Source: Nemertoderma westbladi (Eukaryota > Animalia > Xenacoelomorpha). Taken from it: DNA of 64,000 nucleotides. The position numbers were made by a program, and so were the translations under genes. This document shows, piece after piece, positions 15,028 through 60,278 of the stretch. The stretch spans positions 1 through 64,000 of the forward strand of contig JAUCBJ010009040.1 in NCBI GenBank assembly GCA_032718475.1, written 5' to 3'. Every line of letters begins with the position of its first letter. Within the stretch, counting starts at the first letter, position 1. The notes under the pieces were generated by a model, which searched no databases, was not told where the DNA came from, and saw only the letters and a program-made list of their open reading frames with translations.

Positions 15028-15334
15028 GTAAGTTTATTTAATGCATAAAGTATTCATTTAGCGTTGTTATCTGAATTATTCATTTAATGATTTGCTCACG
15101 TGAATAAAGACACCCTTTATTAAGGATGTTAGATTTATTCATCAAAACAAATAAAATGTTTTCTCACAGAATTATTCCACAAACAGATATTATATAGTAG
15201 ATACGGTGTTCTCGATTATACCATTAGATAGAGCGCATTATTTAGACCCAGAAAAAGTGAACTTAGGAAAAATGCAACTTACGGTCTTTTTACATTGTAC
15301 GGCAGAGCTATTTATAATTTATTTATTATTACAG

Positions 15335-20455: not shown

Positions 20456-20502
20456 TTCAATTTAGATAATTCTACCTTCCTGGCTGAATTAAATAAAATA
20501 AG

Positions 20503-22849: not shown

Positions 22850-24008
22850 TGTAAAAGCTTTTGCGGATATAATCAGTCCCCTTGCCCGCAAAGTACCGTG
22901 TAGGTGTTTTAACGGACATAAAAGTCATTCTTCTGTATGTGTACTTTGGCGGACATAACAAGACACTAATGCCGCAATGCGTCAAATCCTCTAGCACAGT
23001 GTAGCTTTGATGATTCAGATTACGACATCTACCAGCTGGTTTGCTGGCATGGAAACGGCCGTTGGATCTATGGTTCTTTGTTCAGCTTAACAGCCAATCA
23101 GGGCGATTTTCACTTTATGCATGGAGATACTCTGCAGATCGTACTGGGCGAGTTCAGTATTGGTTTTTCCTATGCCAAGAACACCGGCTTTGGAATCATT
23201 CTGTTTTCAGACTCTAGCAAAACATTAGTAGGCTTAGATTATAGAAACGTATAACTGTTATCAAGTCAAGTCACACCACGGCACATATCTTAACATACCT
23301 CACTCATATTGTCAAACCTTTCACCGCATTATTTTACTGCTATTTACTGTTGGTTATTAATTGTATCAGTTGATTGAATATTGTTATACTTGGAGAATAT
23401 CGATAAATAACCCAAAAATCCCAATCTTCTTGATACACTAAAGGTTAGAGAGACCGGTTACATATAGCAATTGCGACTTATATTATCGTGGTTTTGGAGT
23501 GAATCTAATGCTATTTCATAGATACTACATGAGTCCATTGCTGTTCTCTTTATGTATGGTCAAATTCAGTGACTGTCGGCAAATCAGTGTGCAGTAGTGT
23601 GGTACCGGTAGTGTGCAAGAGTGATTGATAACTAAGCATCTCCTAAAGAATGCGCCTTATACATGAATCATAAGCCGTACCGTTGTGTTTAGTATAAGTC
23701 ATAGCTCTGTTTACATACTTAGAGAGCCACGTCCTAAAGGAACTGTCAAAATTTCCCGAAAGTGAATAATATTTGTCAGAGATTATATATCAACGATCAA
23801 TCGAATAATACAGTAGGCTTACACCGCAATAAGGTCTAAGCATCCGAATCCAGTCTCCCGGGTATATCCAGCGGGTGAATGATCGCGCATCGGCTGGCTT
23901 CGGCTAATGTAGTGCATCAAATATTGTCATAGGCTAAAGTCGATTTATAAACTGAAAGACATATAAATTTGGCAGGTTAAACTGCTGAAGGTCTTAAAAG
24001 CGCGAACA
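22850..24008 (+). repeat. 5' LTR of Bel/Pao copy 1
   Basis: TGTAAAAGC...GCGCGAACA. Direct repeat of 37126-38284 with roughly 25 substitutions counted by eye. Confidence 0.95.
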
Positions 24009-24020
24009 ATAACAGTTATA
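24009..24020 (+). promoter_or_regulatory. Non-tRNA primer-binding site, complementary to LTR-internal 23250-23261
   Basis: ATAACAGTTATA directly abuts the LTR end, lacks TGG, and is the exact reverse complement of TATAACTGTTAT at 23250-23261. Confidence 0.65.
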
Positions 24021-26081
24021 GCTTTCTTTATTGCCGTAAGCAATAAAGCTGAAGTACCGGTCGACCGGTAACCTGTAGGCCCAACTGCTCGAACCGGTAC
24101 TGCTGTAGGCCGGTAGGCCCAACTGCCCGAACCGGTACTGCTGTAACCTGTAAGCCTGTAGGCCCAACTGCCCGAACCGGTACTTATAGTACAAGTACAT
24201 CAGTATTATTTCGATTGTGATATTATACAATGGTAGGCTGTTTAAGAGATTAGGGACTGTACACCCCTTGTTTCTATTGGAGCTTATTTATTTCTGTCAG
24301 TTTTTATTTACCTGTAAGTTAATATTGAGCAGAAGACGTGTAAGCCTGCTCAGATTGTACAGATAATTTGTAGGCTGGACTGTTGTCTGACTGTTGTTAG
24401 GTCTGGAGAGATTGCGGCGTGTGTAGAGTCTGTCCGATAAAGTGCCAGTTGGGAACGTAGGGGCATCTTGAGTTGTATGGTAAACCCCCTCCGAAAGAAT
24501 AAGTCGTCCTACTCGGTTAGAACGCATACTCACTAACCATTTCGGAATCTGCATATACTGTAGTTTATTTAGGCTTGATAGTAGTCTGCCAGTGTTTAGT
24601 CTGTATTTTGTATGTATAGGCCTAGTCTGTACGGGTAGCATAATATTTCTTATTCAGATAATTTGTAGGCTGGATTGTTGTCTGGCTGTTGTTAGGTCTG
24701 AAGGGACTGCTGCGTGTGTAGAGTCTGTCCGATAAAGTGCCAGTTAGGAATGTAGGGGCATCTTGAGTTGTAAGGTAAACCCCCTCCGAAAGAATAAGTC
24801 GTACTACTGAGTTAGAACGCATACTAACTAACCATTTCGGAATCTGCACATATTGTAGTTTATTTAGGCTTGATAGTAGTCTTCCAGCGTTTGGTCTGTA
24901 TTTTGTTTGAGTAGTTTGTACGCGTAGCACAATATTTATTATTCAGAGTTTATGCGATTATTCGCAACATTCACAACCCCAAGTTTATTCCTACAGTAAT
25001 TGTGCTTGTTATACATACGGTTATAGTTAAATTAACCCCGGTACTACACGGGCTGCTTGGCGTAGGTAAAGACTGGTGATTTTGTGCCCTGGTCACTCCA
25101 GCAGATGCCGTGGTTCTTTTAACTGTTCAAGTATATTTAACTGCTGGTTATTTGTTATACAAGTACTTGTACCTAATTTAGGGTTTAGTGTACAGTGCTT
25201 TCCTAAAGTAATTAGTGTGTAGGCAGTATATTTGTGTTGTAAAGTGGTTAATAGGCACGTTAGTTCTGGTAGACTGCGGTAATTAACCTCTAGGTAGGAA
25301 CACTCCGTGAAACATAACGTAGTACTTATAGCGATATGGCTATAAGTCGCCAGACGGTGGTATTTTTCCTATCTGGACAACGCAGTATATTTACTACTAC
25401 TTTACTATTTTCAAATACCGTAGTATCATGTCCGTTGTAATAACCAGATATTCTAACCCTTTGTTAGGCTGGTTTGTAGTTCCCTGTCAAATTACCCTAA
25501 AAATTCGTACGTATACTTTTTGTGTGTTTATTTAGAGATTGTAATCTCACCTTATATTGTACGTAATTCGTAGCTAAGTAACTTAGGCCAGTAGAATTAT
25601 TTGTTTTAGTGTCCAATAAGTAGCACTTCACTGAGAGCGCACAGCTGCTGTGTAGTGATTGCTTTCCAGAAATAGTAACATCTATTTCAATAGAGAAACA
25701 AAACCCCTCATACGGGTATATATCTTTTAAATCAACTCAAAGGTTTATAAACTAGTAGGCCTGTCGTACAACAATTAGGTCTTAATATCAGTTGGACTAC
25801 TGCTTGAATAACGGTAATAAAGTAAACTAATATCTATCTATAGAGTATCTACTACTAGTATCTATAATAGGCTTATTATATATTTGTATATATTTGCGCT
25901 GAAATTATATACCGGTATTCTGTGACAAACCTAGTCTGCAATACTTATTTATACTATAAGTGTATACCGGTATTTTAATATATTGTAATTGATTACCGGT
26001 ACTAGGCCAACAGTCATACTGAATTACTAGACTTGCTTTAACTGTAACTATAGCAGTAGGCATCCAACTGTATAAACAAAT

Positions 26082-28001
26082 ATGTCTGACACAAAGCAAA
26101 ACCTGTCAGACAGTCTAATCGATACAACCATTTGTGACCCAGATAGGAGTGTGGAACGTTTAAGACCGAAGTTCAGCTCACCTCCTACTGTAAGAAATGT
26201 CATCCCTCCAGTAGTAGTATCAGACCCTAGGCTAATCCAACACCTTAGGTCTATCATCGGCACTTGGGCCCAAGTCAAGCGGGATCAGGAAGCAGCTGTT
26301 AAACAGCAACAACATCCTAGCCAAGAACTTAGATCCCAGCGACCCGATAGCTCCAGTAGTTCAGATACTGTAGAGCTGACCCCCGAACGCGGAGTGAAGA
26401 TGGCAGATACGGTTTATTCGGATCCCCTTCTCACTCTTCCTGCAGCAGTACTAACTACGGTATTGATTGCGGTGGAGGAACACCAAGTCGATTGGGCGAG
26501 AAGTAAGCGATCGACACAAGACAGTTATGCGGGATACGTAAGGGAAGAATTGATGTCTATTGTCGAGTCGCAATGGAACTTCTCTGGACCCGGACTCCCG
26601 TTAGACTTATCAGAAGCTACCTGGGAAGACATACACAGGATGGGAGTGACAAAAAACACAATGGATCCAGCTGTTTGGAAGAGGTCGGCAGCAGGATATG
26701 TACAGGGATTCTTCGGCTCCTTGGAGCGATTAGAGGAACAACTGTTTCGACAACCCCAAGGACCTCAAGAGCAGGAAGAGCTGCTTTATCAAGTACGCGA
26801 AAGAACTCTACGCATTAGACTAATCTTATCGGCCTTTGAGGAGGCTTCGAAAAGAAGACAGGACACGTCGTTGCAAGTTGCTGTCAAGACTTGGTTCCAG
26901 CGGGTAGGTCTCAAGGTTCAAGAAACGGCGCAGTGGAAATTTCAGCTGGCTGAGCGACCAACCTATGCAGAATCCACCGACGCCACCTTTTCTCAAGTGG
27001 AAAGCGAAGTGACAGCAGAGAAACCGCAAACGAGAGACGCTATCAACATCTATCTGTCAGACTATCAGCGGTTCCTGGATGATAAAGAGTTGAGGAGACG
27101 TCTGTCTGGACTTCGCCCTGATAGTGAAGGAGCCAAGCTTGTGTTGGACTCAATCGATGCAGAAATGTTAGCCGCAAACCAAGCTAAATTTGATGAACGA
27201 CTCCGCCTCGCTAGAGTCCAAGAAGAACAAGTAAAGAAAAAACGAATAGAAGACAGAAAGGCAACAGCAGTAGCAGCGGCAATTGCAACGGCCGAAGCGG
27301 AAAGAAAGGCGGCAGAAGCAGCGGCAATGGCAACGACCGAAGCGGAAAGAAAAGCGGCAGTAGCAGTGGCAGTGGCAGCGGCCAAAGCGGAAAGAAAAGC
27401 AGCGGAGGCAGTGGCAGAAGCAGAACGGAGAGCGTCTGAAGAGACCACCCAACTGGAGTTGGAAAATCTTCAAGAGACGCAAGACTATATAAATAAACAG
27501 TTAACAGCTAGTCAAATGCAGATGATGAGTCGATCTACTCCCAAGCGACAGGGATTTACATCCTGTGATGAAGGCGATACCACCGATCCTGAAGGCGGAG
27601 GACATAGATCTCGTCTAAGTAGGCGTAGAAGAACGTCTCACCGTCAGAAATTGCCTGATTTGCCTCCAGCTGTTAGAAGACAACTAGCTAGCACAGACTT
27701 AGGTAGTACAGAACCCACAGACCTAAATATTACTGTAAACAGACTCCCTACTATAGTAGATGAGCCTGAAATAATTAGGCCTGTTCTCGAAGCCACCCCT
27801 TTGGTGAGAGAGACCCCTGTACTCCCCGAACCTACCACCAAATTCCCTTTGCACAGTACTAACTGCCTGTACCCGGTGGTGCAGCCCAGGAGAATGTCCC
27901 GGTCCTGGACGCCGAGAGAGAAATCCAAGATTTGTCTCCCGTCATCCCGCGTCGGCCCGCTACTATGTTGGCGACTCCCGCTTCAGCGGTCGAGTGGGTA
28001 G
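26082..28001 (+). pseudogene. gag: Bel/Pao gag N-terminal region (coiled-coil, AEAERKAA repeats), frameshifted near 27860
   Basis: Colinear with the N-terminus of the copy-2 ORF, which reads through here (AGCACTAAGCTACCT vs AGTACTAACTGCCT, 1-nt loss). Confidence 0.85.
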
Positions 28002-29146
28002 ATGAGGGACGGCGGGAGATGGGTCTCTTGCTTGGGCAGCTGAGGGAACACTGGGAATGTTCCTCCCGGCAGGTCCGAGATTTAGAAGGGACTGTCCACC
28101 AGCTCAAGGGAACAGTAAGGGAAAGTAGGTTAGAGTTGCAAGAAGTGCAGCAAAGTATCGCGCTAGAACGCGACAAATTAGTAAATATACAAAAGGGTAT
28201 ACCAACACCCCCTGTAACCATGTGTCAACCCGTTAGGTCTGAAGTATTTCATGCGCAAAGTGTGGAGCCTACACGCGTCTATACTGCTAGTGAAGTAGAA
28301 ACTCCTATAGTAAATCCTATTAAGGGTGATTATAAACCTGTTGATAATAATATTCCATATAGACCTGATAATAATCCGAGAAATTTATATACCGATAATT
28401 CGATATTAAATAACACGATGGTCCAAGAAAGCTTTACGCGTCAGATGGCTAGAACAGAAGCCTGTCAAGCGGTCAAAGTGGGAGAGATCGTCAAATTCAA
28501 TGGAGATGAGATTAAATGGTTACCTTTTAATGAATATTATAAAGATAACAATATACAGAACTCTGTACTATCTAACGGAGAGAAACTTAGATTCCTCATC
28601 GAGTGTTTAGAAGGACCTCCCAAGTTAATGGCATTAAAGTTTATTGGACATCCAGATGGATTAAGACAAGTTTGGGATACATTAAACATCAGGTATGGTA
28701 ATAGGAATAACATAGCTAAGTATTTGTATGCAAAATTAGTAGCCTGCCGAAAGTTCATTAGTAGCGGGATTATAGAGTTTTCCGATGATATTCAGGAGGT
28801 CTGTAGACAATTGGATTGGCTAGGTAAGTCTCATGAATATCAGAGTTCCATGGTTATTGGAGCCGTAGCCTCTACTTTACCAAAGGGTGGAGTAGGTACA
28901 CGCTGGGATAAAAAAGTGTTGTATATGATGGAGCAACAACGACGAGACCCTACCATGGCTGATCTCATGTCATTCTTAGATGGAGAAGTAAAATTACAAC
29001 TCATAAAGCAGTCCCGAGAGAAAACACTGGAAAATAAGGTAAGTGAGAAACCCGTTTCTAGGAGAAAAGTAACCCCAGTGTGTTATACTGACGATGGCGA
29101 AAGCCAAGCTTCTCAAGAAGATGACAGCGGGAAGGACACTGACTGA
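27932..29146 (+). pseudogene. gag: Bel/Pao gag capsid-like region (DUF1759-type)
   Basis: KFNGDEIKWLPF...LSNGEKLRFLIECLEG...WDTLNIRYG motif. Premature TGA where copy 2 has AGA. Confidence 0.85.
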
Positions 29147-29284
29147 TCTTACTATGTTCACAAAACGGCGAAAGACGTAAGTAAATACAAGTCTCGAACC
29201 AATGATAGGAGAGAACAGGTAGCCAAGACTCCTCCTCAGTCTCTTAACAGAATTCACGGAAGAAAGCCCGAAGAAAGAACGAGA

Positions 29285-29893
29285 ATGCATAACGTTATCC
29301 AAGGTAAAGTGAGTAACATCAAACCAAACTGTGCGCTGTGCGACGGGCCCCACCGTTTGAGTGCGTGTGCTGAATTCCTAAAGAAATCCCTGGTAGACAG
29401 ACGTGAAGTCATGTGGGATAAGCGGTTATGCTATAATTGCCTCAGACAAGGACACCAACGGCGAACCTGTTACTCCGACGTAAGGTGTGCAAATTGCGGT
29501 GCGAAACATCACATCTTGTTACACAGTGAATTCGAACAAAACAGCCCGAGTCAGGTAAGTGAGCCCAAACTACATGTCCAATTCAGTGATGTAAATGACA
29601 CTGATCAAGGATCTGAGATGGAAGGATTCTATACGGACGAATTCTCCGATGCCAACGAATCCTGTTACCTAATAAATACCGCAGTGTATCGAGCACTTAC
29701 GTATGAAAAGGACACCGATAATGAGTTCCCCCCAACTACCTTTGACAGACAACCATCTTGGAAGGCTCCAACTTCCAACGTAGGAATCCGAGAATTTCCT
29801 GTAGTGCAGGTAAGAGTTTACGGTCCTGACAAAAGTTACATAGTGAACGCCCTCCTTGACTCCGGCAGCACAAGAACATTCATCGACCAATAA
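29285..29893 (+). pseudogene. gag-pol: Bel/Pao triple zinc knuckle + aspartic protease N-half
   Basis: CALCDGPHRLSAC, CYNCLRQGHQRRTC and CANCGAKHHILLH (Bel/Pao three-finger pattern); ALLDSGS protease motif; premature TAA. Confidence 0.9.
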
Positions 29894-29944
29894 CTAGCCG
29901 AAGACATCTTTGCTGGACAACCCAAATTCCAAACTAAGTTAAAC

Positions 29945-31498
29945 ATGTCAGGAATTATGCAGGTTTGGAAATCTACCATAATTGCAGATTATTATGTAGG
30001 TGCGTTATCCACCCCCCAGGATAAATTAGGAGTACAAAGTATAAGGTCAGTAAAAATGGTGGCGATAAAGAACTTTGCTACTACCCAAGTAGAACCTTAT
30101 AACTGGGACGAGGACGAGTGCATCCAGCAACTTAAGATACCTCGATTCCACACAGATTATCCTGGAGTGCAAATACTCATCGGCCAAAACGCGCATGAGG
30201 CGCTCGAGACATTAGAGAAATGGCCTGCTCAACCGCAGCCACTACAAACCTATGCGGTAAGAACTAGAGTAGGTTGGTACTTTACTAGCCCTTCCCGTAG
30301 AACTCTCAAAGAGAGATTATCCCAAGAACAAGTATACCAAGTAAATGAATGGGAAGTGGAGAGCAGTGAGGTGGACGAACCAACTGAGGGAACACCATAC
30401 TCCTCAGATAATGACAACATCTTCCAACTCTTCGACGAAGAGAACACAATCGACCTTCTTACAGAAAACGAAACTTGGCAAAACCAGGTGAACCTATGTC
30501 AACTGAGTCGCCCATCGGGACCAATTAACTACAATGACGAACTCAATGACGAGATAGAGCGCTACAACGCTAGGACTCGGGACGAGCTCGCCGTACGATT
30601 CTTTACTCAAGAGGTGGTAGAGCCCAATTCATACGATAAGGCCCTATCGGTAGAAGAAGAAAGAGCCAAGCAGATCCAGGAGACAACTACACGTTTTCTA
30701 AAAGATCAAGGTAGATATGAAATTGGCCTACCATTTCGAAAACGAGAACCTAGATTTATAAACAACCGACCCTTGGCGGAGAAAAGAATCGCTCAATTAC
30801 ATCGAAGCCTTACGGCAAATGCTTCAGCTAAAGAAATGTACCAAACGCAGTTGAAGAAATTTATTAACAAAGGATATACGGAGCGAGTACCGGAAGAAAC
30901 ACCCATAACGGAGAGAACGTACTATCTAACACATCATTACGTTCCCAAACCCGGTAAACCCCATGAAGTACGGGTCGTATTTGATGGCTCCGCCCTATAC
31001 ATGGGCCAATCCCTCAATTCCGAGTTGTTACCAGGACCCAACTTACTCCAATCCTTGTTGGGAATACTTTTAAGATTAAGACAATATTCCATCGCATTCG
31101 CCTCCGATATAGAAGGAATGTTCTTACAAGTCAAGGCGCTGAATAGGGATAGAGACAGCCTAAGATTTCTGTGGTGGCCTGAAGGAGATCTCAACCAGAA
31201 ACCGGTGGAGTACTGGATGACCATCCAGGCTTTTGTGATCATATCAAGCCCTTCAAACGCCTGCTCAGTGGTGCGGACCACTGCGGATGACAACTGGGAC
31301 GCCTTCTCTAAAGAGGTGATTGACAACATCAAACGGGATATATACATGGACGACAATCTAAAGTCCCTTCCATCCGTAGCAGAAGCCATTGATGTCGCGA
31401 AAGGAACGGTTGAGTGCTTGAAAAGAGGTGGATTTCGACTGACTAAATTCACCAGCAACTCCCGTGAGTTTCTGGAATTGATACCGGTAGAAGACTGA
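29945..31498 (+). pseudogene. pol: Bel/Pao protease C-half + reverse transcriptase
   Basis: RVVFDGS, SLNSELLPGPNL, DIEGMFLQV, LRFLW, YMDD, GGFRLTKFTSN. Ends at an in-frame TGA. Confidence 0.92.
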
Positions 31499-31555
31499 GG
31501 AGCAAAAGGCCTAGACTTAATAAAAGACGATCTTCCAGAAACCAAGACGCTTGGC

Positions 31556-32122
31556 TTGAAATGGAACACTGAGAGAGATATCTTGTTTTTTCAGCTAAAA
31601 CAGCGAGATAATCCAGTTTGGACCAAACGGATTTGTTTAAGTATCCTGAGCACTTATTTCGATCCATTGGGATTTATTAGCCCAGTTATCTTGATTGCTC
31701 GGAGTTTAGTACAACAAATGTGGCTCGAAAACCATTCATGGGACGATCCACTTAAGGGAGAACTATTAAAGAAGTGGATGAAATGGGAAGATTCTCTACC
31801 AGCCATCGAGAACTTTATAATTTCCTGTTCATATTTTGGTCATGTTCTCCCTACGTATTCCTATCAACTCCATGTGTTTGGAGACGCTAGCGATATGGGA
31901 ATAGGAATAGTAGCATACCTGCGAGTCGAAACTCCGGATGGAATCAAAGTCGCCTTGGTTACCTCTAAGGCATTGATTAACATCAAGTTGAAGGTTCCTC
32001 GAGCGGAGTTAAAGGCGGCTCTATACACTACAGCCATCGGCCAGAATGTAACTGAACAGATCGATTACCCACTGGAGAAAACTGTTTACTGGACCGATGC
32101 TTTACTCGTGTTGAGTATATAA
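31556..32122 (+). pseudogene. pol: Bel/Pao RT connection / RNase H region
   Basis: TKR..LS....FDPLGFISP, WDDPL, LHVFGDAS, AYLR, PRAELKAA, YWTDA. Frameshift near 32120. Confidence 0.9.
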
Positions 32123-32286
32123 CCAATGAAGTCTGTCAGTTCAGCGTCTTTGTTACCAACAGAGTAGCCATTATTCTTAGTCGCACGAAGATAGATCAAT
32201 GGAGACATTGCCCTGGTACGATTAATCCAGCCGACATCGCCTCCAGGGGAGCAACTCCACAGGAACTGATAGATACTCCAGATTGG

Positions 32287-34017
32287 TTGGGTGGACCCGA
32301 CTTCCTGAGCAAGGAAGAGGATGAATGGCCTCCTTACCTTACTACGGCTGAGATCAGACAAGCCAAGGGAGCGGAGAAAGTTAAACCTAAAACCCGGGCG
32401 AGTAAATCGAAGTTATTTAAACCGGTGATAGATCTATCTGTATTACATACTTCTGGAAACAATGCTTCGGATCCACAATCCCTCACCACAAATAAGTCTG
32501 TTGTGGAAATTAGAGATAGAGATTGGAAATCTAGAATACCAGACGTCTCGCAAGGAATCTCACCCTTGCTGCAGAGAGCGATACATCAATATAGTTCCTG
32601 GAATCGGCTCTGTAAGGCCGTCACATATTTAAAGCGATGTTTTTATCATCATTACTCCAGGACGAAGACCACTAGTGATACCGCTCCATTGACATCTGCG
32701 CAAGTTCATGTTGTTAAAGATCTTCCCAAATATAAGATATCCGACCGGTTTCTAAAAGAGAAGATCAGTTACCCGGAGCATGAAGAAACCAATAAGCAGA
32801 TACTGAGACTCCTGCAATGCTATGAGGATTCCGATAAGTATTTCCTGTTGTTGAGAAATCCACAGATGCGCTTAAGGGATCGCTTCTCTAGCACAATTAT
32901 AGATGGGTTAATACGTGTTGGAGGAAGACTCACTAATGCTCCATCATCCTTTGACACTAAATTCCCCATACTCATTAGAAATCTTGAAGTACAAATCAAG
33001 ATGATTGTAGATGTTCACAGTAAACTTTATCATGCTGGTAGAGAACAACTTCTTAGCAAAATTCGAACTCGCTATTATTTTTATAAACCCCGTAGAGCTC
33101 TGAACCAAGTTCTTAGGAACTGCATACCCTGTAGGAAAGCATTCAGTAGGCCTTTAACACAGCGAGAGGCAGAATTACCTAGGGAACGAGTAAGCTTCTA
33201 TGAACCACCCTTTACTAATACCGGTGTGGATTTATTTGGCCCTATTGAAGTATATCGTGCTAGGACTATAGTCAAGAGATGGTGTGTCATCTTTGTCTGC
33301 ATGACTTGTAGAGCTATCCATCTCGATATGGTGAACGATCTATCTACCAACAGCTTCGTCTTAAGTTTACGCCGACAGATCGCTCGCTTCGGAACTAGTA
33401 ACACGATGAGATCTGATAAGGGAACGAACTTCATTGGTGCCAACAACGAAATCCAGGCTTACGTAAAGGACTGGAACCAAAGACAGGTGGATGATCAGCT
33501 AAGGATAACAGCGTCTAGCTGGACCTTCAATGCCGCCGACGCCCCTTGGTGGGGAGGAAGTTGGGAGAGATTAATTAGAAGTGTCAAGACCGCATTTCAC
33601 TTTATAGTGCCGTGCTGCGCGTATCTCACCGACGAACTTTTGCGGACGTTAATGGAGGAAATCGCTGCCTATCTCAACGAGAGACCGCTTATGCCAGTCT
33701 TATCGAGTCCCGATTCCCTGGAAGCGCTAACACCCGCGCACTTCCTACTTAAGAAACCTGTAGCCATGCTCCCACGATCGGAGATCGCTGACGGAGACGA
33801 ATACTGCCGTCAAACTTGGCAACTTATGCAGTTGCTATCCCGTCGTTTCGCTGACCATTTCGAGAAACATTATCTGCCCACGCTACAACTTCGAACTAAG
33901 TGGTTTGCGCAGCAAGAAAACGTCAGCGCCGGAGACATGGTGCTTATTGTAGATTCAGACCTTCCACGTAAAACGGTGTCAGACAGGTCGTATCATCGAG
34001 ACTCACATCTCGGATGA
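32287..34017 (+). pseudogene. pol: Bel/Pao integrase
   Basis: IRVGGRL, H-x4-H...CIPC zinc finger, GVDLFGP, RAIHLD, SDKGTNF, PWWGGSWERLIRSVK, LNERPL, LTPAHFL. Frameshifted tail continues to 34228. Confidence 0.92.
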
Positions 34018-35695
34018 TGGTTTAGTGCGCTCGGTAGAACTCGTCATCATGCGGCGTAACTTCAAGAAACCAGGCATAATCTTCGAGACGCAACAGCTCA
34101 ACCGCCCAGTTGGTCGTTTATGTTTACTGGAAAGAGACCGAGAACTCTCCGGAAACTATGGAAGGCAAGACACTCTTCCCACGACCACCTCCCTAATTCC
34201 TCAAACATCTAGGGGCTCCCCAACGTAATACGTCTGGAGTGGGTGCATGACTATATTATTTTATCTATTTTATTATATTTTTATATCCCTCTATGTATGG
34301 ATTATTATGTACTTTATTATAATCGTTTTATTTAATTTTATTTAGTAGAATGCTATTTTAACGATTATTTAGTAGATTAGTGCAATATATATTAGTGTTT
34401 ATTAATTAATTACATATATTATATATTTAGTGTGACGGCGAGAAATAATTCTTTTCTCTTTCCTTACTGTCCGTATTATATTATAAATGCGAGACTACAG
34501 TAAGATGACATGTCCGTACTTATTAAAGTACAATAAAGCTCCTACTATTTTTAAGTATTATTGGTAGGCAGAGTATTAGGAGTGCAAAGTTCAGATCCTC
34601 GGGTCTCGGCTAAACCAAGCTCTGGGTAGACCTTGGAAACAACTTGCCTCTTCACACTGACATTGCTTCGTGCGATATTGCTCTTCTACCTTATATTAAA
34701 TAATACATATAGTAGCGTGATGTCCCTTTAACAGTAGCGTAAAACGCAAAATAAACCTGTTAAACCTTTTGACCACCTATAATTCTAGTCGATTAAGATA
34801 TCGTGGCACCCACCGATATACTTAAAAGACAAATTCTAGAATCAGTGGTTAACGTCCCCAGACAAGCTCTGGAATAAAATTGTGTCAATTTTACCATCAA
34901 ATAATAAAATTCACGGGAATAAATCTAAATTCATATCTTTAATGAATTCAATAAATTGTCATTTTATGCAATTTATAACATTCCCAAAATTCCATTAATT
35001 AATAGATCACAGGAGTGGAGATTCACCCTATTGAGTGTATTAGAGTGCGAGAATCTCCAATATATAGTCAATAGCCGATAAAATTCATGAAATCATGCAT
35101 AAAGAGGATATTGACAATTAAAGAATTACTATTAAATAGCATCCCAGATCTGTATGCATGAGAATTACCCTAATTCTACCGCTAGCTTACCATAATGTCA
35201 CCATAGCAACACCCACGCTAGAATTAGAAGCAAGTTAAAAAGAACAATAGAAGGCTTGTCCCATTGCATAGTATAGGTAAGAAATAGCACACCGCTAGTA
35301 TCCAAGGATACATAATAATAACGTGGCATTCTGGAAGGCACTGACTAATGGACAAATGGCCTGTATGTGTACAATTGGTAACAGTTGTGTGGAATTTGTG
35401 CGTTTATAGGTGAATGTTACTACTAAAGTGTGTTTACAGTAGCGAGTTGCAATTGTGAAAGTAGCCCTAACTCTACCGAAAGAACCTGAAGTTAATCCAA
35501 GCCTTTGGGACGGACAGTGGAGGGAATTGTGCCGGTTATCGTTGTCGTGCTGTAGCTACACATTGGCGAAAACACCGAGACGACGGTACATCGGCGCTGA
35601 GAATCCCACTGTCCGGGGGCAGAGAGGGGTAGGCAGCGACGCCCACTCGCCTAAATACAAACTTATTATAATATTAACAAACTCAGGTAGCAGAT

Positions 35696-37099
35696 ATGAT
35701 GGAGTTGATAGAAGATGATCTTGGTATCAGGGAGCGACATACTCTACCTTTACAAGCATTTGTAGATAGCTTGATACGTGGTGAAGCCGATCCAACTACT
35801 ACGGAGGACGATGGTCGCTATATCGAACCGCCGATGTCCCAGGAGCAACTTACGCATGAATTGGACTATAGAAAATTCACCGCTCGCTATACGCATCCTA
35901 ATGGTACGTATATGGACTTCTTAACTACTGGCCATTCTATCGATTTACACGATACGGACTATGTCAACACCGAAAGGGAAATGGTACTATTTAAATATCC
36001 TACCCAGCGGAGTCGGAACGATAAACTGAAATTCGAATGCGAAAATTCTATATGAAATCGACTTGAAAGAAAAGATGTTAAAGAAGCGGATAAACGCGGT
36101 AACTCCGTATTTGGAATTCTTGAGAGAAGCATTGTAACACCAAATAAATATCCCCGCGTTTCCCCTACAAGACGTGCGTCTTTGGTATTAATACGATGAA
36201 TGCCCAAGACACAACCAACAAACGGAAAGACATAAATACCAGCGGAGACGTTGCTTTAAACACCGTTTACTCGCTATATTTACGGGAATTTCGAACGAAA
36301 CTTATTCGATGTATCACCTACGCTCTCTCGACTCAAACGATCCTTAAGTAAACCTATGATCAGAGTTCCGGAATACTCGGTCAGACCTCCTCATTCCTTA
36401 GTTAGACCTCAGACTCTTGATCCTAATAGTATCACGGATCCTCACGAACTGTACTCACCGTTCAGAGATCTAGTGTTACCCAAACCGTTCGTAGGTGGCA
36501 CTCCGGTTGTGGGCTCCCTAAATATCCGCCCATCTTACCTGGCCGGATTGGGGCGTGGACACCTAATATCGCCATTCAACCGTATAATCGTCCCCGTTTA
36601 ACACGATACAACCCGTCATCAAGGTGGAGGAGAGCGTTGTACGAAACGAGTTAGACGCTATTCTACAAAGATCAGAAAAGAAACCTACGTTTTTTCAGAT
36701 AAACTTAAATTGTAACAGCAAGTCCAAGCGGTAAATGGATTGGCTTTATCTCAGTTCGATTGGGAAATCCAGAATCTCTAATACAATATCAAACTTGGAC
36801 AACCCTATTCTCTGCGAGAGTTTTTGGACGAACGTATCCAACGACGAGCGGAGGAAAATCAGCTCGAGGAGAAGCATATCGAAACGGCGGATACCCCGAC
36901 CATAATCCTACACCTTCTGATGCAATCATATTGCACCCTTCACCCAGGAGTTATAGCCCTCCTAGTAAAGTGGCTCGCCCCAAAGAGAAAAGGACTCTTG
37001 TTAGCTTTAAAAAACTGCGTAAACGCCGTCCACGCAAGAAAGACTAACTGTTTAGAGTATTTCTGTATATTAGAAACTGTGATTTTGTATATTTTGTAG
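35696..37099 (+). pseudogene. Degraded extra ORF region of unknown function between pol and the 3' LTR
   Basis: GC-richer block with ORFs 35696-36055, 36356-36601 and 36824-37099, with counterparts in copy 2 (47163-48740 -). No recognisable domain. Confidence 0.4.
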
Positions 37100-37115
37100 A
37101 CTTGAATCCCATTTT

Positions 37116-37125
37116 CTGGGAGCGG
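37116..37125 (+). promoter_or_regulatory. Short polypurine-tract-like sequence
   Basis: CTGGGAGCGG immediately precedes the 3' LTR and is identical in copy 2 (47137-47146 -). Confidence 0.6.
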
Positions 37126-38284
37126 TGTAAAAGCTTTTGTGGATATAATCAGTCCCCTTGCCCGCAAAGTACCGTGTAGGTGTTTTAACGGACATAAAAG
37201 TCATTCTTCTGTATGTGTACTTTGGCGGACATAACAAGACACTAATGCCGCAATGCGTCAAATCCTCTAGCACAGTGTAGCTTTGATGATTCGGATTACG
37301 ACATCTACCAGCTGGTTAGCTGGCATGGAAATGGCCGTTGGATCTATGGTTCTTTGTTCAGCTTAACAGCCAATTAGGGCGATTTTCACTTTATGCATGG
37401 AGATACTCTGCAGATCGTACTGGGCGAGTTCAGTATTGGTTTTTCCTATGCCAAGAACACCGGCTTTAGAATCATTCTGTTTTCAGACTTTAGCAAAACA
37501 TTAGTAGGCTTAGATTATAGAAACGTATAACTGTTATCAAGTCAAGTCACACCACGGCACATATCTTAACATACCTCACTCATATTGTCAAACTTTTTAC
37601 CGCATTATTTTACTGCTATTTACTGTTGGTTATTAATTGTATCAGTTGATTGAATATTGTTATACTTGGAGAATATCGATAAATAACCCAAAAATCCCAA
37701 TCTTCTTGATACACTAAAGGTTAGAGAGACCGGTCACATATAGCAATTGCGACTTATATTATCGTGGTTTTGGAGTGAATCTAATGCTATTTCATAGATA
37801 CTACATGAGTCCATTGCTGTTCTCTTTATGTATGGTCAAATTCAGTGACTGTCAGCAAATCAGTGTGCAGTAGTGCGGTAGCGGTAGTGTGCAAGAGTGA
37901 TTGATAACTAAGCATCTCCTAAAGAATTAGCCTTATACGTGAATCATAAGCAGTACCGTTGTGTTTAGTATAAGTCATAGCTCTTTTTACATAGTTAGAA
38001 CGCCACGTCCTAAAGGAACTGTCAATATTTCCCGAAAGTGAATAATATTTGTCAGAGATTATATATCAACGATCAATCGAATAATACAGTAGGCTTACAC
38101 CGCAATAAGGTCTAAGCATCCGAATCCAGTCTCCCGGGTATATCCAGCGGGTGAATGATCGCGCATTGGCTGGCTTTGGCTAATGTAGTGCATCAAATAT
38201 TGTCATAGGCTAAAGTCGATTTATAAACTAAAAGACATATAAATTTGGCAGGTTAAACTGCTGAAGGTCTTAAAAGCGCGAACA
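37126..38284 (+). repeat. 3' LTR of Bel/Pao copy 1
   Basis: Direct repeat of 22850-24008, followed by TSD GTTTC. Confidence 0.95.
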
Positions 38285-45977: not shown

Positions 45978-47136
45978 TGTTTGCGCTTTTAAGACCTTTG
46001 ACAGTTTAACCTGCCAAATTAGGATGTCTTTTAGATGATATATAGTCTTTAGCCTATGACGAGTATTTGATACACTACATTAGCCGAAGCCAGTCTATGC
46101 GCAATCATTCACCCGCTGGATATACCCGGGAGACTGAATTCGGAAGCTTAATGATTGATGGTGTAAGCCTACCGTATTATTCGACTGATCGTAATATATA
46201 ATCTCTGACAAATATTATTCACTTTCGGGAAATATTAACAGTTCCTTTAGGACGTGGCGCTCTAATTATGTAAACAGAGTTATGACTTAAACTAGACACA
46301 ACGAAAAGGCTATAGATTCACGTATATGGCGCATTCTTTAGGAGATGCTTTGTTATCAGTTACAATCATACACAATGCTGCACAATGCTGCACACCAATC
46401 TGCCGACCTTCACTAATTTTAGTCACATACAAAGAGAATAACAGACAATACATGTAGGGCCTATAAAATAGCATTAGATTCACTTCAAACCACTTAACAT
46501 AGGTCGCAATCGTTTATCTGTAACCGGTCTCTCTAACCTTTAGTATATCAAGAAGGTTGGGTGTCTGACTATTGATCAGTATTCCAAATATAATCTTCCA
46601 TCAACAAATATAATGAATAGCCGACAGCAAAAGCAGTAATGTTAAGTAAGATATGCATGATATGTTTAGGTAAGCATCGATAATGTAACTCGATAACAGA
46701 TATACGTTCTATAATTAAGCCTACTAATGTAAGACTAAAGACTGAAACACGGAGGTGCCAAAAGCCGGTGTTCTTAGGCTCTGGGCAAAAACATAACACT
46801 GAATTCCTGAGTTTCTGTATCCACCTCCAACACAGAGACAAAAAACGCTCTGATTGGTCGACCGAACAACGAGAGAACAAAGAAACAAAGAAATGTCGAC
46901 GTGGCAATATCAGCTGTTAGCCGTCGTCATGGTAGCGACACTGTTTTCAAGAGTATCGAGCTTATTGCGTCCCGAAATTGCGGATTATGTCCTCTAAAGT
47001 ACAAATACAGAAGAAATGGCTTTTATGTCCTCTAAAACACCAGTACAGTAAGGACACGGCCTTTTTATGCCCAGTAAACCAACTACAGAGTACTTTACGG
47101 GGAAAATAACCGGCTAATTACGCAAAAGCTTTTACA
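45978..47136 (-). repeat. 3' LTR of Bel/Pao copy 2
   Basis: Direct repeat of 57614-58769 with about 8 substitutions and 3 single-base indels by eye. Confidence 0.95.
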
Positions 47137-50398: not shown

Positions 50399-53300
50399 TT
50401 ACGTTATGGAGTCCCTAGATATTTGTTGGATTAGGGAGGTGGTCGTGGGAAGAGTATCTTGCCTTCCATAGTTTCCGGACAGTTTTCGGTCTCTTTCCGG
50501 TAAACATAAACGACCAGCTGGGCGATTGAGTGGTTGTGTTACTTTCTCCGCTCCCTTGGCCTGTCTAATCTTCGCCGGGTTAAGATGGGGAGGCCATTCA
50601 TCTTCTTTACTTAGGAAGTCGGGTTCACCTAACCAGTCTGGAGTATCTGTAAGTTCTTGAGGAGTTGCTCCTCTGGAGGCGATGTCGGCTAGATTGATCG
50701 TCTCGGGGCAATGTCTCCATTGATCTACATTGGAGTTGATGTTGTCATTATCTGAGGAGTATGGTGTTCCCTCAGTTGGGTCGTCAACTTCACTGCTCTC
50801 CACTTCTCGTTCACTTAATTGATATACCTGTTCTTTTGGTAATCTTTCCATAAGAGTTCTACGAGAAGGGCCAGTAAAGTACCAACCTACTCTAGTTCTT
50901 CCTGCATAAACTTGTAGAGGTTGCGGTTGAGCAGGCCGTTTCTCCAATGTCTCGAGCGCTTCATGCGCATTTTGACCGATGAGTATTTGGACTCCAGGGT
51001 AATCGGTGTTGAATCTAGGTATTTCAAATTGCTGGGTGAAATCGTTCTCATCCCAGTTGTAAGGTTCCACTTGGCTGGTCGCGAAGTTCTTTATCGCTAA
51101 CATTTTTACTGACCTTATGCTGTGTTCTCCTAGTTCATCCTGGGGGGTGGACAACGCACCTACATAATAATCTGCGATTACTGTAGATTTCCAAACCTGC
51201 ATAATTCCTGACATGTTTAGCTTGGTTCGGAACTTGGGTTGTCCAGCAAAGATGTCTTCGGCTAGTTCTTTGTCGATGAATGTTCCTGTACTACTGGAGT
51301 CAAGGAGGGCGTTCACTACATAACTCCTTTTAGGTCCGTGGACCCTTACCTGTACTACAGGAAATTCTCGGATTCCTACATTGGAAGGTGGTGCTTTCCA
51401 AGATGGTTGTCTGTCAGAAGTAGTTAGTGGGGGCTCGCTGTCGGTGTCTTTTTCATACGTAAGTGCTCGATACACTGCGGTATTTGTTAGGTAACAGGAT
51501 TCGTTTTCGTCGGAGAATTCGTCCGTATAGAATCCTTCCATCTCAGAATATTGGTCAGTGTCGTTCACATCACTGAATTGGACATGTAGTTTGGACTCAC
51601 TTACCTGACTCGGGCTGTTTCGTTCGAATTCCGTGTGCAACAAGATATGATGTTTTGCGCCGCACTTTGCACACCTTACGTCGGAGTAACAGGTTCGCCG
51701 TTGGTGTCCTCGTCTGAGGCAATTATAACACAACCGCTTATCCCACATGACTTCACGTCTGTCCTTTAGTGATTTCCTCAGGAATTCATCACACGCACTT
51801 AAACGGTGGGGCCCATCGCACAGCACACATTTGGGCTTGATGTTACTTACTTTAACATGTGCTGTGTGGTGCACGTTCGTTCTTTCCTCGGGTTTTCTCA
51901 CCTGAATTCTCTTGGGAGACGTAGGAGGAGTTTTTCTTACCTGTTCTCTCCTGTCATTGGTTCGAGACTTGAATTTACTTACCTGGTCTTTAGGCGTTTT
52001 ATTGACATAATAAGATCTTTCAGTGTCTTTCCCGCTATCCTCTCCTTGAGAAGTCTGGCTTTCGCCGTCGTCTGTATAACACACTGGTGTTACCCTTCTC
52101 CTAGAAACGGGTTTCTCACTTACCTTGTTTTCCAGTGTCTTCTCTCTGGACTGCCTTAGGAGCTGTAATTTCACTTCTCCATCTAAGAATGACATGAGAT
52201 CAGCCATGTTAGGGTCTCGTCGTTGTTGTTCCATCATATATAACACTTTCTTGTCCCAGCGTGTACCTACTCCACCCTTGGGCAAAGTAGATGCTAAGGC
52301 TCCTACAACCATAGAATTCTGGTATTCATGAGACTTACCTAACCAATCTAGCTGTCTACAGATCTCCTGAATTTCGTCGGAAAACTCTATAATCCCGCTG
52401 CTAAGAAACTTTCGGGGCGCCATTAATTTTGCATACAAATACCTAGCTATGTTAGTCCTATTACCATACCTGATGTTTATTGTATCCCAAACTTGTCTTA
52501 ATCCATCTGGATGTCCAATAAACTTTAACGCCATTAACTTGGGAGATCCCTCCAAGCACTCGATGAGGAATCTAAGCTTTTCTCCGTTAGATAACACGGA
52601 GTTCTGTATGTTATCTTTGTAATATTCATTAAAAGGTAACCATTTCATCTCATCTCCATTGAACTTGACGATCTCTCCCATCTTTACCGCTTGACGGGCT
52701 TCGGTTCTAGCCATTTGACGCGTAAAACTTTCTTGGGCCATCGTATTATTTAATATCGAGTTATCGGTATATAAATTTCTCGGATTATGATCCGGTCTAT
52801 AGGGAATATCATTATCAACAGGTCTATAATTACTCTTAATAGGGTTCACTATAGGAGTTTCTACTTCGCTAGCAGTATAGATGCGTGTAGGCTCCACACC
52901 TTGCGCATGAGATACTTCAGACCTAACAGGTTGACACATTGTTACGGGGGGTGTTGGTATACCCTTTTGTGTATTTACTAATTTATCGCGTTCTAGCGCG
53001 ATACTTTGCTGCACTTCTTGCAACTCTAATCTACTTTCCCTTACTGTGCCCTTGAATTGCTGAACGGTCTCCTGCATCTGTCCGAGCAGGAGATCCATCC
53101 CCCGTCGTCTCTCATCCACCCATTCAACCGCCGAAGCGGGATTCGCCAACGTTGTAGCAGGCGGACGAGGGACAACGGGCGACAAATCATGAATATTTCG
53201 CTCGGAGTCCAGGGCATGAACTGTCTCATGGGCTGTTCTGCTGGGCACAGGTAGCTTAGTGCTGTGCAAAGGGAATTGAGAGGTAGGTTCAGGGAGTACA

Positions 53301-54436
53301 GGTGTCTCTACGACCGAAAGGGTGGCTTCGGGAACAGGCCTAATTATTTCAGGCTCATCTACTATAGTAGGGAGTCTTTCTATTGTAATTATTTGGTCTG
53401 TGGGTTCTGTACTACCTAAGTTGGTGTTATTTAGTTGCCTTCTAACAGCTGGTGGCAAATCAGGCAATTTCTGACGGTGGAATGTTCTTTTACGTCTGCT
53501 TATGTGAGATCTATTTCCTTTGCCTTCAGTATCGGTGGTATCGCCTTCCTCAGATGATGTATATCCCTGTCTTTTGGGAGTAGATCGATTCATCATCTGC
53601 ATATTACTAGCTGTTAACTGTTTATTTATGCAGTCTTGATTCTCCTGAATATTTTCCAATTCTAATTGGGCGATCTCTTCAGCCGCTATCCGTTCTGCTT
53701 CTGCCGCTGCCATTGCCGCTTTTCTTTCCATTTCAGCTGCTTTTCTTTTCGCTTCTGCCTCTGCCGCTGCCGCTTTTCTTTTCGCTTCCGCTTCTGTCTC
53801 TGCCGCTGCCGCTGCCGCTTTTCTTTCCATTTCGGCTGCTTTACTTTCCTCTTCGGCTGCTTTCCTTTCGGCTTCTGCAGCTGCTACTGCTGCTTTCTTT
53901 CTGTCTTCTATGCGTTTTTTCTTCACCCTTTCTTCTTGGTCTCTAGCGATGCGGAGTTGTTCATCGAATTTAGCTTGGTTCGCCGCTAACCTATCCACAT
54001 CAATTGCGTCCAACACACGCTGGGCTCCTTCACTATTAGGGCTAAGTCCATCTAGCCTTCTCCTCAACTCTTCATCTCCCAAAAAACGCTGATAGTCTGA
54101 CAGATAGATGTCAATGGCATCCCTCTTATGCGGTTTCTCTGCCGTCGCTTCACTTTCCACTTGGGAAAAAGTAGCGTCTGTTGATTCTCCATGGGTTGAG
54201 CGCTCCTCCAGCTGAGCTTTCCACTGAGCTGTTCCTTGAACCTGGAGACTCACCCGTTGAAACCAAGTCTTTACGGCAACTTGCAACGACGTGTCTTGTC
54301 TTCTTTTAGAAGCCTCCTCAAAGGCTGATAAGATTAGCCTGATTCGTAGAATTCTTTCTCTAACTTGATAAAGCAGTTGTCCCTGCTCTTGAGGTCCTTG
54401 GGGTTGTTGAAACAGTTGTTTTTCTACTCGCTCCAT
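50399..54436 (-). CDS. gag: Bel/Pao Gag-protease ORF fused in frame to short pol remnants (1345 aa)
   Basis: Capsid-like motif, three zinc knuckles, LLDSSS (protease motif with G>S), then jumps to QWRHCP..N.ADIASRG and to the final LNRP..RLCL peptide. Confidence 0.85.
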   Translation of the reverse strand: MERVEKQLFQQPQGPQEQGQLLYQVRERILRIRLILSAFEEASKRRQDTSLQVAVKTWFQRVSLQVQGTAQWKAQLEERSTHGESTDATFSQVESEATAEKPHKRDAIDIYLSDYQRFLGDEELRRRLDGLSPNSEGAQRVLDAIDVDRLAANQAKFDEQLRIARDQEERVKKKRIEDRKKAAVAAAEAERKAAEEESKAAEMERKAAAAAAETEAEAKRKAAAAEAEAKRKAAEMERKAAMAAAEAERIAAEEIAQLELENIQENQDCINKQLTASNMQMMNRSTPKRQGYTSSEEGDTTDTEGKGNRSHISRRKRTFHRQKLPDLPPAVRRQLNNTNLGSTEPTDQIITIERLPTIVDEPEIIRPVPEATLSVVETPVLPEPTSQFPLHSTKLPVPSRTAHETVHALDSERNIHDLSPVVPRPPATTLANPASAVEWVDERRRGMDLLLGQMQETVQQFKGTVRESRLELQEVQQSIALERDKLVNTQKGIPTPPVTMCQPVRSEVSHAQGVEPTRIYTASEVETPIVNPIKSNYRPVDNDIPYRPDHNPRNLYTDNSILNNTMAQESFTRQMARTEARQAVKMGEIVKFNGDEMKWLPFNEYYKDNIQNSVLSNGEKLRFLIECLEGSPKLMALKFIGHPDGLRQVWDTINIRYGNRTNIARYLYAKLMAPRKFLSSGIIEFSDEIQEICRQLDWLGKSHEYQNSMVVGALASTLPKGGVGTRWDKKVLYMMEQQRRDPNMADLMSFLDGEVKLQLLRQSREKTLENKVSEKPVSRRRVTPVCYTDDGESQTSQGEDSGKDTERSYYVNKTPKDQVSKFKSRTNDRREQVRKTPPTSPKRIQVRKPEERTNVHHTAHVKVSNIKPKCVLCDGPHRLSACDEFLRKSLKDRREVMWDKRLCYNCLRRGHQRRTCYSDVRCAKCGAKHHILLHTEFERNSPSQVSESKLHVQFSDVNDTDQYSEMEGFYTDEFSDENESCYLTNTAVYRALTYEKDTDSEPPLTTSDRQPSWKAPPSNVGIREFPVVQVRVHGPKRSYVVNALLDSSSTGTFIDKELAEDIFAGQPKFRTKLNMSGIMQVWKSTVIADYYVGALSTPQDELGEHSIRSVKMLAIKNFATSQVEPYNWDENDFTQQFEIPRFNTDYPGVQILIGQNAHEALETLEKRPAQPQPLQVYAGRTRVGWYFTGPSRRTLMERLPKEQVYQLSEREVESSEVDDPTEGTPYSSDNDNINSNVDQWRHCPETINLADIASRGATPQELTDTPDWLGEPDFLSKEDEWPPHLNPAKIRQAKGAEKVTQPLNRPAGRLCLPERDRKLSGNYGRQDTLPTTTSLIQQISRDSIT

Positions 54437-54451
54437 AGAGCTGAAGAATCC

Positions 54452-55051
54452 CTATGCGTATCCGGCTGCGGACCTCTTCCACACAGCTGGATCGGTGGTC
54501 TCCTTGGCTACTCCCATCCGGTGTATGTCTTCCCAGGCAGCTTCTGATAAATCAAACGGGAGTCCGGGTCCGGGGAAGTTCCATTGCGACTCGACCATAG
54601 ACTTCAGTTCTTCCCTTGTGTATCCCTCATAACTATCTTTAGTTAATCGCTTACTTCTCGCCCAATCGATCTGGTGTTCTTCCACCGCGATCAATAACCT
54701 AGTGAGTACGGCTGCAGGAAGGATGAGAAGGGGATCCGAATAAACCGCATCCGTCATCCTTGCTCCGCGCTCGGGTGTCAGCTCTACAGTATCTTCACTA
54801 CTGGAGCTGTCGGGCCGCTGAGAAATAAGTTCTTGGCTCGCGGGTTGTTGCTGTTCCGCTGCTTCTTGGTCCCGCTTGACCTGAGCTCGAGTGCCTATGA
54901 TAGACCTACGGTGTTGGACTAGCCTAGGGTCTGAGATTACTACAGTAGGGATGGCCTTTCTTACAGCAGGAGGTGACTTAGACTTGGATCTAGGATGTTC
55001 TATACTTGGATCTGGGTCACTGATCTTTTTAAGACACTTTCTGACAGTCAT
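54452..55051 (-). pseudogene. gag: Gag N-terminus of copy 2, separated from the main ORF by one in-frame TAG
   Basis: GGA TAC GCA TAG GGA TTC vs copy 1 GGA TAT GTA CAG GGA TTC; same frame as 50399-54436. Confidence 0.85.
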
Positions 55052-57602: not shown

Positions 57603-57613
57603 ATATCTGTTAT
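57603..57613 (-). promoter_or_regulatory. Non-tRNA primer-binding site of copy 2, complementary to LTR-internal 58326-58336
   Basis: Minus-strand ATAACAGATAT abuts the LTR end; the LTR contains minus-strand ATATCTGTTAT. Confidence 0.65.
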
Positions 57614-59748: not shown

Positions 59749-60278
59749 TGTAAAGGCTTTTGCGGATCTAGCTAGTCATTTTCCCCGCAAAGTACTCTGT
59801 AGGTGTTTTAGCGGACATAAAAAGCCGTTTTCTTACTGTGTAGGTGTTTTAGTGGACATAAAAAGCCATTTTTCTGTATGTGTACTTTAGCGGACATAAC
59901 AAGCCATTTTATGCCGCAATACGCCAAAATACTCTTAATACAGTGTAGTTCAGATGACGACATCTATCAGCTGATATGTCGATGTGGAGCTTTTGGCTTT
60001 CTTTGTTCAGGCTCACTCGACCAATCAGGGCGATTTTCATTTTATTTGTACAGAAGCCTATGGGAAATCGCGCAATGCATGACGGTCTTTGTTTACCTTT
60101 TTTCCTGAGCCCAGAACATCGGCTTTGGAATTATTCTGTGTTTCAGACTTTAGCCAAACATTAGAACGGCTTTGATCATAGAAACGTATAACTGTTATCT
60201 CAAGTCACAACTCAACATACAACTCAGCCCAGAACATCGACCTTTCACCGCATTATTTTACTGCTATTTACTGTCGGC
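59749..60278 (+). mobile_element. Truncated LTR (U3-R part) of a third variant of the same Bel/Pao family
   Basis: TGTAAAGGCTTTTGCGGAT start, colinear with 22850-~23352, including CCAATCAGGGCGATTTTCA and GAAACGTATAACTGTTATC. Confidence 0.85.

Follow-up and report, generated by a model that had tools for sequence, protein, structure and literature searches.

How does an LTR retrotransposon of the Bel/Pao superfamily start reverse transcription when the bases that follow its 5′ LTR do not spell the complement of a tRNA end? The question is raised by a 64,000 nt stretch of DNA from Nemertoderma westbladi (contig JAUCBJ010009040.1, positions 1 to 64,000), referred to here as the window, for which the original prediction was that the element family it carries primes from a segment of its own LTR. 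This analysis identified one LTR family in the window, present as two copies and one partial third LTR (Table 1). Copy 1 spans 22850-38284 on the forward strand (15,435 bp), has LTRs that differ at 25 positions, and is flanked on both sides by the target site duplication GTTTC; the uninterrupted host repeat represents the empty site and has GTTTC once, at ~61565. Copy 2 occupies 58769-45978 on the minus strand (12,792 bp), with the target site duplication AATGC and 18 columns of divergence between its LTRs. The repeat in which copy 1 sits (18072-22850 and 38284-39226) has its uninterrupted inverted copy, 96 % identical, at 60636-63667. Elsewhere in the window there are tandem, near-identical units of ~2.27 kb (5075-15195; 99.5-99.8 %), each with a 32 bp minisatellite, further tandem arrays at 39429-40251 (~163 bp units), 42625-42981 (12 bp) and 19515-21178 (~250 bp), and an open frame on the forward strand (16116-16805) with a fibrinogen C-terminal domain (Pfam E 5e-38).

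Judged by its predicted proteins, the family is Bel/Pao (Belpaoviridae), a superfamily whose named clades include BEL, Pao, Tas, Suzu, Sinbad, Sailor and others. The gag-pol of copy 1 encodes DUF1759, three Cys-His knuckles, protease, RT, Pao RNase H, and integrase. Pfam matches are to DUF1759, Peptidase_A17, Integrase_H2C2, and DUF5641 (PF03564, PF05380, PF17921, PF18701), and the RT piece retrieves proteins bearing the same Bel/Pao domains at 36-46 % identity. The likeness to Belpaoviridae thus covers the DUF1759 Gag and its knuckles, the order PR-RT-RH-IN, the pair of TG...CA LTRs of 1.16 kb, the 5 bp target site duplication, and the purine tract. A Ty3/gypsy chromovirus Pol, as in the Tf1/sushi group, was sought and not found, Pfam and homologues both pointing to Bel/Pao. 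The ICTV account of Belpaoviridae (Semotivirus) gives an 18 nt primer-binding site (PBS) for tRNA-Arg or tRNA-Gly and a length of 4.2-10 kb (PMC8742986), whereas the window family has no 18 nt PBS complementary to the 3′ end of a host tRNA and, at 15.4 kb, exceeds that range. On the present sequence, the ICTV description of the PBS fails for the window lineage.

In copy 2 RT is missing, as are the greater parts of RNase H and integrase (copy-1 positions 7572-9343 and 9532-11239 are unmatched), and the copy is, on this gene content, non-autonomous. Between integrase and the purine tract of copy 1 there are short open frames only; three pieces of this region of ~3 kb searched against Pfam gave no match, and an atlas comparison of one piece scored merely 0.75 and identified no protein. 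The region may be a decayed extra gene. The leader of ~2 kb (24050-26075; 57560-55140) contains duplications of roughly 290 bp and short repeats, and the N-terminal part of Gag is long, charged, and alanine-rich.

Table 1. Positions of the element features discussed in the text. Coordinates are those of the window unless a locus is named.
Feature	Position	Strand	Remarks
5′ LTR, copy 1	22850..24008	+	1159 bp, TG...CA; 97.8 % to 37126-38284
Acceptor-like TTTCAG following pyrimidine run (candidate splice site)	23205..23210	+	40 nt upstream of 11-mer
Second helix, upstream arm, copy 1	23243..23247	+	AGAAA, pairs with 24023-24027
Predicted self-primer 11-mer, copy 1	23251..23261	+	Reverse complement of 24009-24019; 12 nt with 23250
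Primer-binding site, copy 1	24009..24020	+	Directly after LTR, without TGG
Second helix, leader arm, copy 1	24023..24027	+	TTTCT
gag-pol, copy 1	26076..34017	+	Six open pieces, interrupted by stops and frame changes
Integrase-to-PPT region, copy 1	34018..37117	+	~3 kb, 79-89 % to copy 2 counterpart (50539-47137)
Purine-rich tract preceding 3′ LTR, copy 1	37118..37125	+	Identical letters in copy 2
3′ LTR, copy 1	37126..38284	+	Second instance of primer word at 37526-37537
3′ LTR, copy 2	45978..47136	-	Primer word at 46703-46693
gag-protease frame, copy 2	50399..55135	-	Single stop
Primer-binding site, copy 2	57603..57613	-	Directly after LTR
5′ LTR, copy 2	57614..58769	-	1156 bp; 99.05 % to 47136-45978
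Predicted self-primer 11-mer, copy 2	58326..58336	-	Reverse complement of 57613-57603
Partial third LTR	59749..60277	+	~73 % to other LTRs; copy-1 primer word kept at 60187-60198; without PBS
Sister element without the GT-AG segment versus element with it	L071:7094-7206 vs L085:7050-7219		168 nt segment of LTR absent from L071

The original prediction paired the PBS of each copy with a word inside its own LTR, and every coordinate and sequence word that it quoted proved right when re-checked on the window sequence. In copy 1 the PBS (24009-24020) and 23250-23261 (LTR position 401) are perfectly reverse-complementary, and in copy 2 57613-57603 pairs 11/11 with 58336-58326 (LTR position 434), the duplex common to both copies being 11 nt (23251-23261 in copy 1). 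With the LTR ends set by the 3′ LTRs and the target site duplications, the duplex adjoins the LTR boundary with zero spacer, as had been claimed, and the 3′ end of the predicted primer pairs with the first base beyond the LTR. A PBS complementary to ~11 nt of the element's own LTR, in a duplex ending at the LTR boundary, is the Tf1-type arrangement. The reported absence of TGG holds for the LTR end of both copies and for the first 100 nt of copy 1, but not for copy 2 further on, where there is a TGG at +18 that is not conserved in copy 1. No tRNA genes were found within the window.

The chance of an anchored perfect match of at least 11 is ~5e-4 per copy: with 38,924 control starts for each copy, the fractions reaching it were 0.00049 and 0.00041. 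Shuffling of the PBS words gave 71 and 282 matches in 200,000. The figures for the two copies are not independent, as the copies are relatives. When PBS and LTR are swapped between the copies, only 7 anchored base pairs are left. The PBS-LTR complementarity in the two window copies is confirmed as real. The proposal that both sites have changed together stands in part: perfect pairing is kept in both copies, but just one pair is altered within the 11-mer (PBS position 8). The copy-1 word is quasi-palindromic, and in copy 2 the palindrome is broken with pairing intact, in agreement with the view that complementarity rather than direct similarity is kept. The partial third LTR, which does retain the copy-1 word, is uninformative on covariation because it has no PBS.

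Duplex folding gave a second helix, overlooked in the original prediction and separated from the 11 bp duplex by a small loop. In copy 2 it is formed by AGAA (58343-58340) and TTCT (57599-57596), arms that are one A and one T shorter than those of copy 1, i.e. a compensated indel, although one that falls in short, indel-prone A/T runs. Covariation within the window is thin, consisting of one compensated pair and one compensated indel in two informative copies. Public DNA contigs from four runs, aligned to the LTR, show that the family is high-copy; among the best 40 alignments several are interrupted at 23262-23263 and a single one at 24019, and a one-base deletion at 23245-23247 is polymorphic, in contigs too short to link PBS and LTR site. 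The acceptor-like TTTCAG with its pyrimidine run is also found at 58375 and 60146, and so is present in all three LTR types. A primer split by an intron was sought in the window LTRs and rejected, the best scores being 9 and 8.5 against 11 for the contiguous match. As neither AATAAA nor ATTAAA was found in the window LTRs, R and U5 cannot be placed.

That the element's own RNA, and not a tRNA, supplies the primer, the core of the original prediction, is strongly supported, by relatives and not by the single compensated pair in the window. An RT alignment search gave 16 loci from prokaryote genome bins and 79 from metagenomes (best 80 of 558 confirmed), all distant, at ~30-46 % identity to the window element in RT. 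The 16 (L001-L016) are animal-type Bel/Pao elements, several retaining both LTRs, that lie on contigs assigned to bacterial genome bins and are probably mis-binned animal host DNA. With the Gag region as query merely two weak relatives were retrieved, the viral contig collection searched contained no relative, and a search of metagenome contigs for the LTR-end pattern found nothing.

An anchored panel was formed of 17 elements, the two window copies and 15 loci in which both LTR copies end inside the locus. The PBS matches the element's own LTR at 10-11 of 11 positions in all 15 loci. Perfect 11/11 pairing was observed in 13 of the 17 own pairings, the remaining four scoring 10-10.5; among 272 cross pairings and 510 shuffles there was no such match. 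As panel elements are related, permutation counts overstate independence. The match is contiguous in L051 and L057, as in the window copies; in the other 13 loci it exists only across a GT-AG intron-like segment of the LTR, 72-451 nt in length. In the search for the complement of the post-LTR bases, short matches started just after a pyrimidine-rich AG and resumed before an upstream GT donor. The splice-motif rules were relaxed after inspection of L002 and L068, and offsets were widened for L015 and L061. L068, with TGG at +2, is the sole anchored locus with TGG within four bases of the LTR end. Between L004 and L006 the exon-2 part is common and three exon-1 bases covary (CAC/GTG versus TAA/TTA), and between L056 and L082 covariation takes the form of a one-base indel on both arms. 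Two further features were noted among the relatives: L007 contains a second LTR pair (1623-6342; 331 bp, 99.7 %) nested inside the Bel/Pao element, and L037 has, ~300 nt downstream of the self-complementary site, a word (1378-1389) that we take to resemble a tRNA-Lys PBS, with no CA before it.

A blind scan, without LTR anchoring, covered the 82 loci with upstream DNA. Split matches of at least 11 Watson-Crick pairs were found in 27 loci (~20 lineages once near-identical contigs are merged) versus 1 of 405 cross pairs, the lone positive joining two loci with identical PBS. Contiguous matches were found in 10 of 82 loci, three of them at the wrong site, versus 22 of 405 cross pairs; as they are weakly specific, the intronless relatives L009, L029, L037, L046, L059, L069, and L089 rest on inspection. 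When 33 unmatched or doubtful loci were re-examined, L008 (with a 1022 nt segment), L031/L036, and L069 matched at 11, and most of the other unmatched loci had no leader or LTR. One comparison bears directly on the intron-like segment. L071 is 90 % identical to L085, keeps the PBS and an otherwise continuous LTR, and is exactly missing the 168 nt GT-AG segment; it is the sole joined form among 28 split families checked. Whether L071 is a spliced transcript or a natural intron loss, the predicted sites are joined precisely. Across the loci compared, pairing of the PBS with the element's own LTR characterises the lineage as a whole, the window family representing the intronless form.

Primer anatomy was compared across 39 rows selected by hand, the two window copies plus 37 loci. 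The PBS starts with GT in 31 rows, AT in five, AG in two, and GG in one. With one mismatch allowed, the duplex is 11 nt in 25 rows, 12 nt in nine, and 14-15 nt in five, and exon 1 contributes 3-7 nt in 27 of the 28 split rows, the remaining row receiving nothing from it; in L082 the entire 11-mer is downstream of the acceptor. Beyond the 11-mer, pairing of the flanks is stronger with the matching partner than with that of other elements (-5.6 versus -3.6 kcal/mol; 0 of 20,000 permutations, n=38), also in the 21 rows with a perfect duplex stopping at 11 (-5.5 versus -3.8; 36 of 20,000), although these counts overstate independence since the elements are related. This test excluded L056 and the partial LTR and took the junctions of L002 and L006 from the anchored panel; the row comparison had selected different junctions for these two loci, the one in L002 overlapping its own PBS. 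The two bases upstream of the 11-mer are A-rich (27/39 and 23/39), with G/C before them, and on this pattern are a bulge preceding the second helix. Because the flanks 5′ of the 11-mer pair with their own partner, transcription probably begins at a point upstream of the 11-mer, in contrast to Tf1.

The right end of an LTR is set by the 3′ end of the primer, and a duplex 0-6 nt from the LTR end therefore occupies the priming site. It is rather probable that the minus-strand primer is the element's own RNA folded back on itself, an internal LTR segment and not a tRNA. Transcription would begin in the LTR, some way upstream of 23251, and the RNA would fold back into the 11 bp duplex, the small loop, and a second helix of 4-5 bp. 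The primer nearly always ends in ...AC or ...AT; a cut 3′ of its last base, for which the element's own RT/RNase H is the probable enzyme by analogy with Tf1, would free a 3′-OH. RT would then copy the LTR end back to the cut, over 747 and 712 nt in the window copies and ~45-260 nt in relatives; the loop in the window elements is at least three times longer than in relatives. The strong-stop product would jump to the 3′ LTR, and plus-strand synthesis would copy the primer, still attached, as far as the loop and so rewrite the PBS in every cycle. Such copying would account for the usual end of perfect pairing at 11. In most relatives the primer would arise only once host splicing has removed the LTR intron.

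A primer made by the element could also reach its site in trans, as a short LTR transcript, spliced in intron-bearing families, that anneals to unspliced genomic RNA and is cut there. With the packaged template staying unspliced, this would explain the persistence of the LTR intron in 13 of 15 anchored loci, and survival of the intron through repeated reverse transcription favours such a route for split families; a poly(A)-type signal is present no more than 260 nt after the primer in most panel rows, and the high copy number in public DNA contigs would also suit it. However, the intronless window family can always fold back in cis, tight covariation of the PBS with its own LTR requires no trans step, and in L071 the LTR is uninterrupted by an intron from its first base to beyond the joint, so that supply in trans is unlikely overall. 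Quite unlikely is the strict geometry of Tf1, in which the RNA starts at 23250/23251, the start considered in the original prediction, and its first 11 nt are the primer. The commonest duplex length of exactly 11 nt (25/39 rows) is that given for Tf1 in the accessible part of PMC7175516, and both window copies have a pyrimidine-purine step at the first base. That step is present at -1/+1 in only 10 of 38 rows, only 3 of 39 rows have a TATA word in the 45 nt before the 11-mer, and a search for a TATA box 30 nt ahead of the primer found none. Base pairing continues on the 5′ side of the 11-mer and includes, in the window, a compensated indel. Split relatives would require a first exon of 3-7 nt, and the L082 11-mer lies wholly after the acceptor; a start at 23250/23251 is therefore doubtful. 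Since dozens of PBS words are each tracked by their own LTR, a primer encoded by the element, whether by fold-back, in trans, or from the first bases of the RNA, is put as very probable.

If the primer were instead a host RNA, a half-tRNA or other small RNA, the LTR match would serve as a stem, structural or regulatory, by which the site is masked. The word CTGTTA, present in the primers of both window copies, resembles the anticodon loop of tRNA-Asn. Bel/Pao priming is by host tRNA according to the ICTV (PMC8742986), and half-tRNA priming is known in Ty1/copia (accessible text of PMC6317226). Nevertheless, dozens of PBS words, each matched only by its own LTR, would require equally many host RNAs, and a tRNA primer would reset the PBS rather than follow mutations of the LTR, making a host primer very unlikely. 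It is highly improbable that the match is a by-product, whether of a quasi-palindromic dimerisation word, a local duplication, or chance in AT-rich DNA. The near-palindrome of copy 1 and the single covarying pair within the 11-mer would fit such an origin, but copy 2 keeps the pairing without the palindrome, the chance expectation per copy is low, and in relatives the geometry persists where the words are not palindromic and where splice motifs intervene. The anchored panel and the blind scan largely refute it.

With fold-back of the element's own RNA as the preferred reading, the distribution of the intron-like form can be considered. In a quick maximum-likelihood tree of 118 RT rows, in which the root rests on one row, the window RT is on a long branch (1.57) within a 57-row group (SH-aLRT 99) of mixed split and contiguous elements; the window element is among marine-type matches, and one mosquito protein is far outside. 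The contiguous label needs six changes on this tree, at least four of them forced by supported branches, with L008, L031, L069, and L071 carrying no split or contiguous label. The tree pattern and L071 agree, and fit repeated intron loss. The intronless form of the window family probably arose by intron loss, or by way of an acceptor that is now upstream of the primer. The chances are evenly balanced for the full scenario, in which a broad aquatic-animal Bel/Pao lineage would prime from its own RNA, ancestrally joined by the spliceosome across an LTR intron, such that only spliced RNA primes; intronless families would have arisen repeatedly by precise loss, and the primer would be internal and bounded by a bulge, not the 5′ end of the RNA, a route distinct from both tRNA and Tf1.

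Comparable systems are known in other superfamilies. Tf1 RNA pairs with the PBS through its first 11 bases and is cleaved by RNase H between bases 11 and 12; Tf1/Tf2 of Schizosaccharomyces pombe, Tj1, Tf1/sushi, and Tcn1 likewise have no tRNA PBS and place 11 nt of their own LTR RNA on the PBS (accessible parts of PMC7175516 and PMC4600332). The Tf1 group are Ty3/gypsy chromoviruses, whereas the window family is from another superfamily and works alike without being a member; the Tf1 mechanism has been experimentally shown, whereas priming in the window family is deduced from sequence. Self-priming is also predicted for Tcn1 and for TAR, Houba, and Osr-1 of Ty1/copia (PMC6317226, accessible text). 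The TAR lineage (Houba, Osr-1) is plant copia in which self-priming is sequence-predicted too, and the accessible text makes no mention of a splice-assembled primer (PMC6317226). Convergence across superfamilies, raised as a possibility in the original prediction, is therefore not new, self-priming outside Ty3/gypsy having been predicted already. Fungal GalEa copia elements with a 'conserved hairpin site' and bivalve TRIMs are also without a tRNA PBS, but their hairpin is inside the internal region, unlike in the window family, and the GalEa authors report no LTR complement (available portions of PMC5445492 and PMC6934838). Nor is the PBS-LTR pairing peculiar to the window family, since the same geometry is present in every anchored relative tested, mostly across the intron-like segment of the LTR.

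Cer7 of Caenorhabditis elegans, an element of Bel/Pao type, has reportedly been proposed to encode its own primer RNA, which is said to be a tRNA-like RNA from the internal region and not an LTR segment. Achilles, an olive-fly element, also belongs to Bel/Pao. It has a tRNA-Tyr PBS, according to the accessible text of PMC4580426. PBS and tRNA go unmentioned in the accessible parts of two Bel/Pao papers (PMC3118150, PMC554778), and no Bel/Pao self-priming is described in those of PMC3601003, PMC5445492, PMC5443660, PMC8220671, PMC6934838, PMC3286476, PMC2864245, and PMC4580426. No report of Bel/Pao self-priming was found in the literature covered; a prior note may exist in subscription papers, Repbase, GyDB, or supplements. 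The signature in the window is likely to be a self-priming variant of a known mechanism, in a superfamily where none was found in print.

Replication of Bel/Pao elements is described as poorly understood, and their priming as tRNA-based (PMC8742986). If the present reading is true, a large part of the superfamily needs no tRNA, and self-priming arose in all three LTR superfamilies. It would supply a simple sequence rule for many elements annotated without a PBS, and it predicts exact RNA ends and junctions that are testable on existing RNA data. It is also relevant to the question, posed in the accessible part of PMC3601003, of which is older, hairpin or tRNA priming. For the families with an LTR intron, it would mean that host splicing gates retrotransposition by making the primer.
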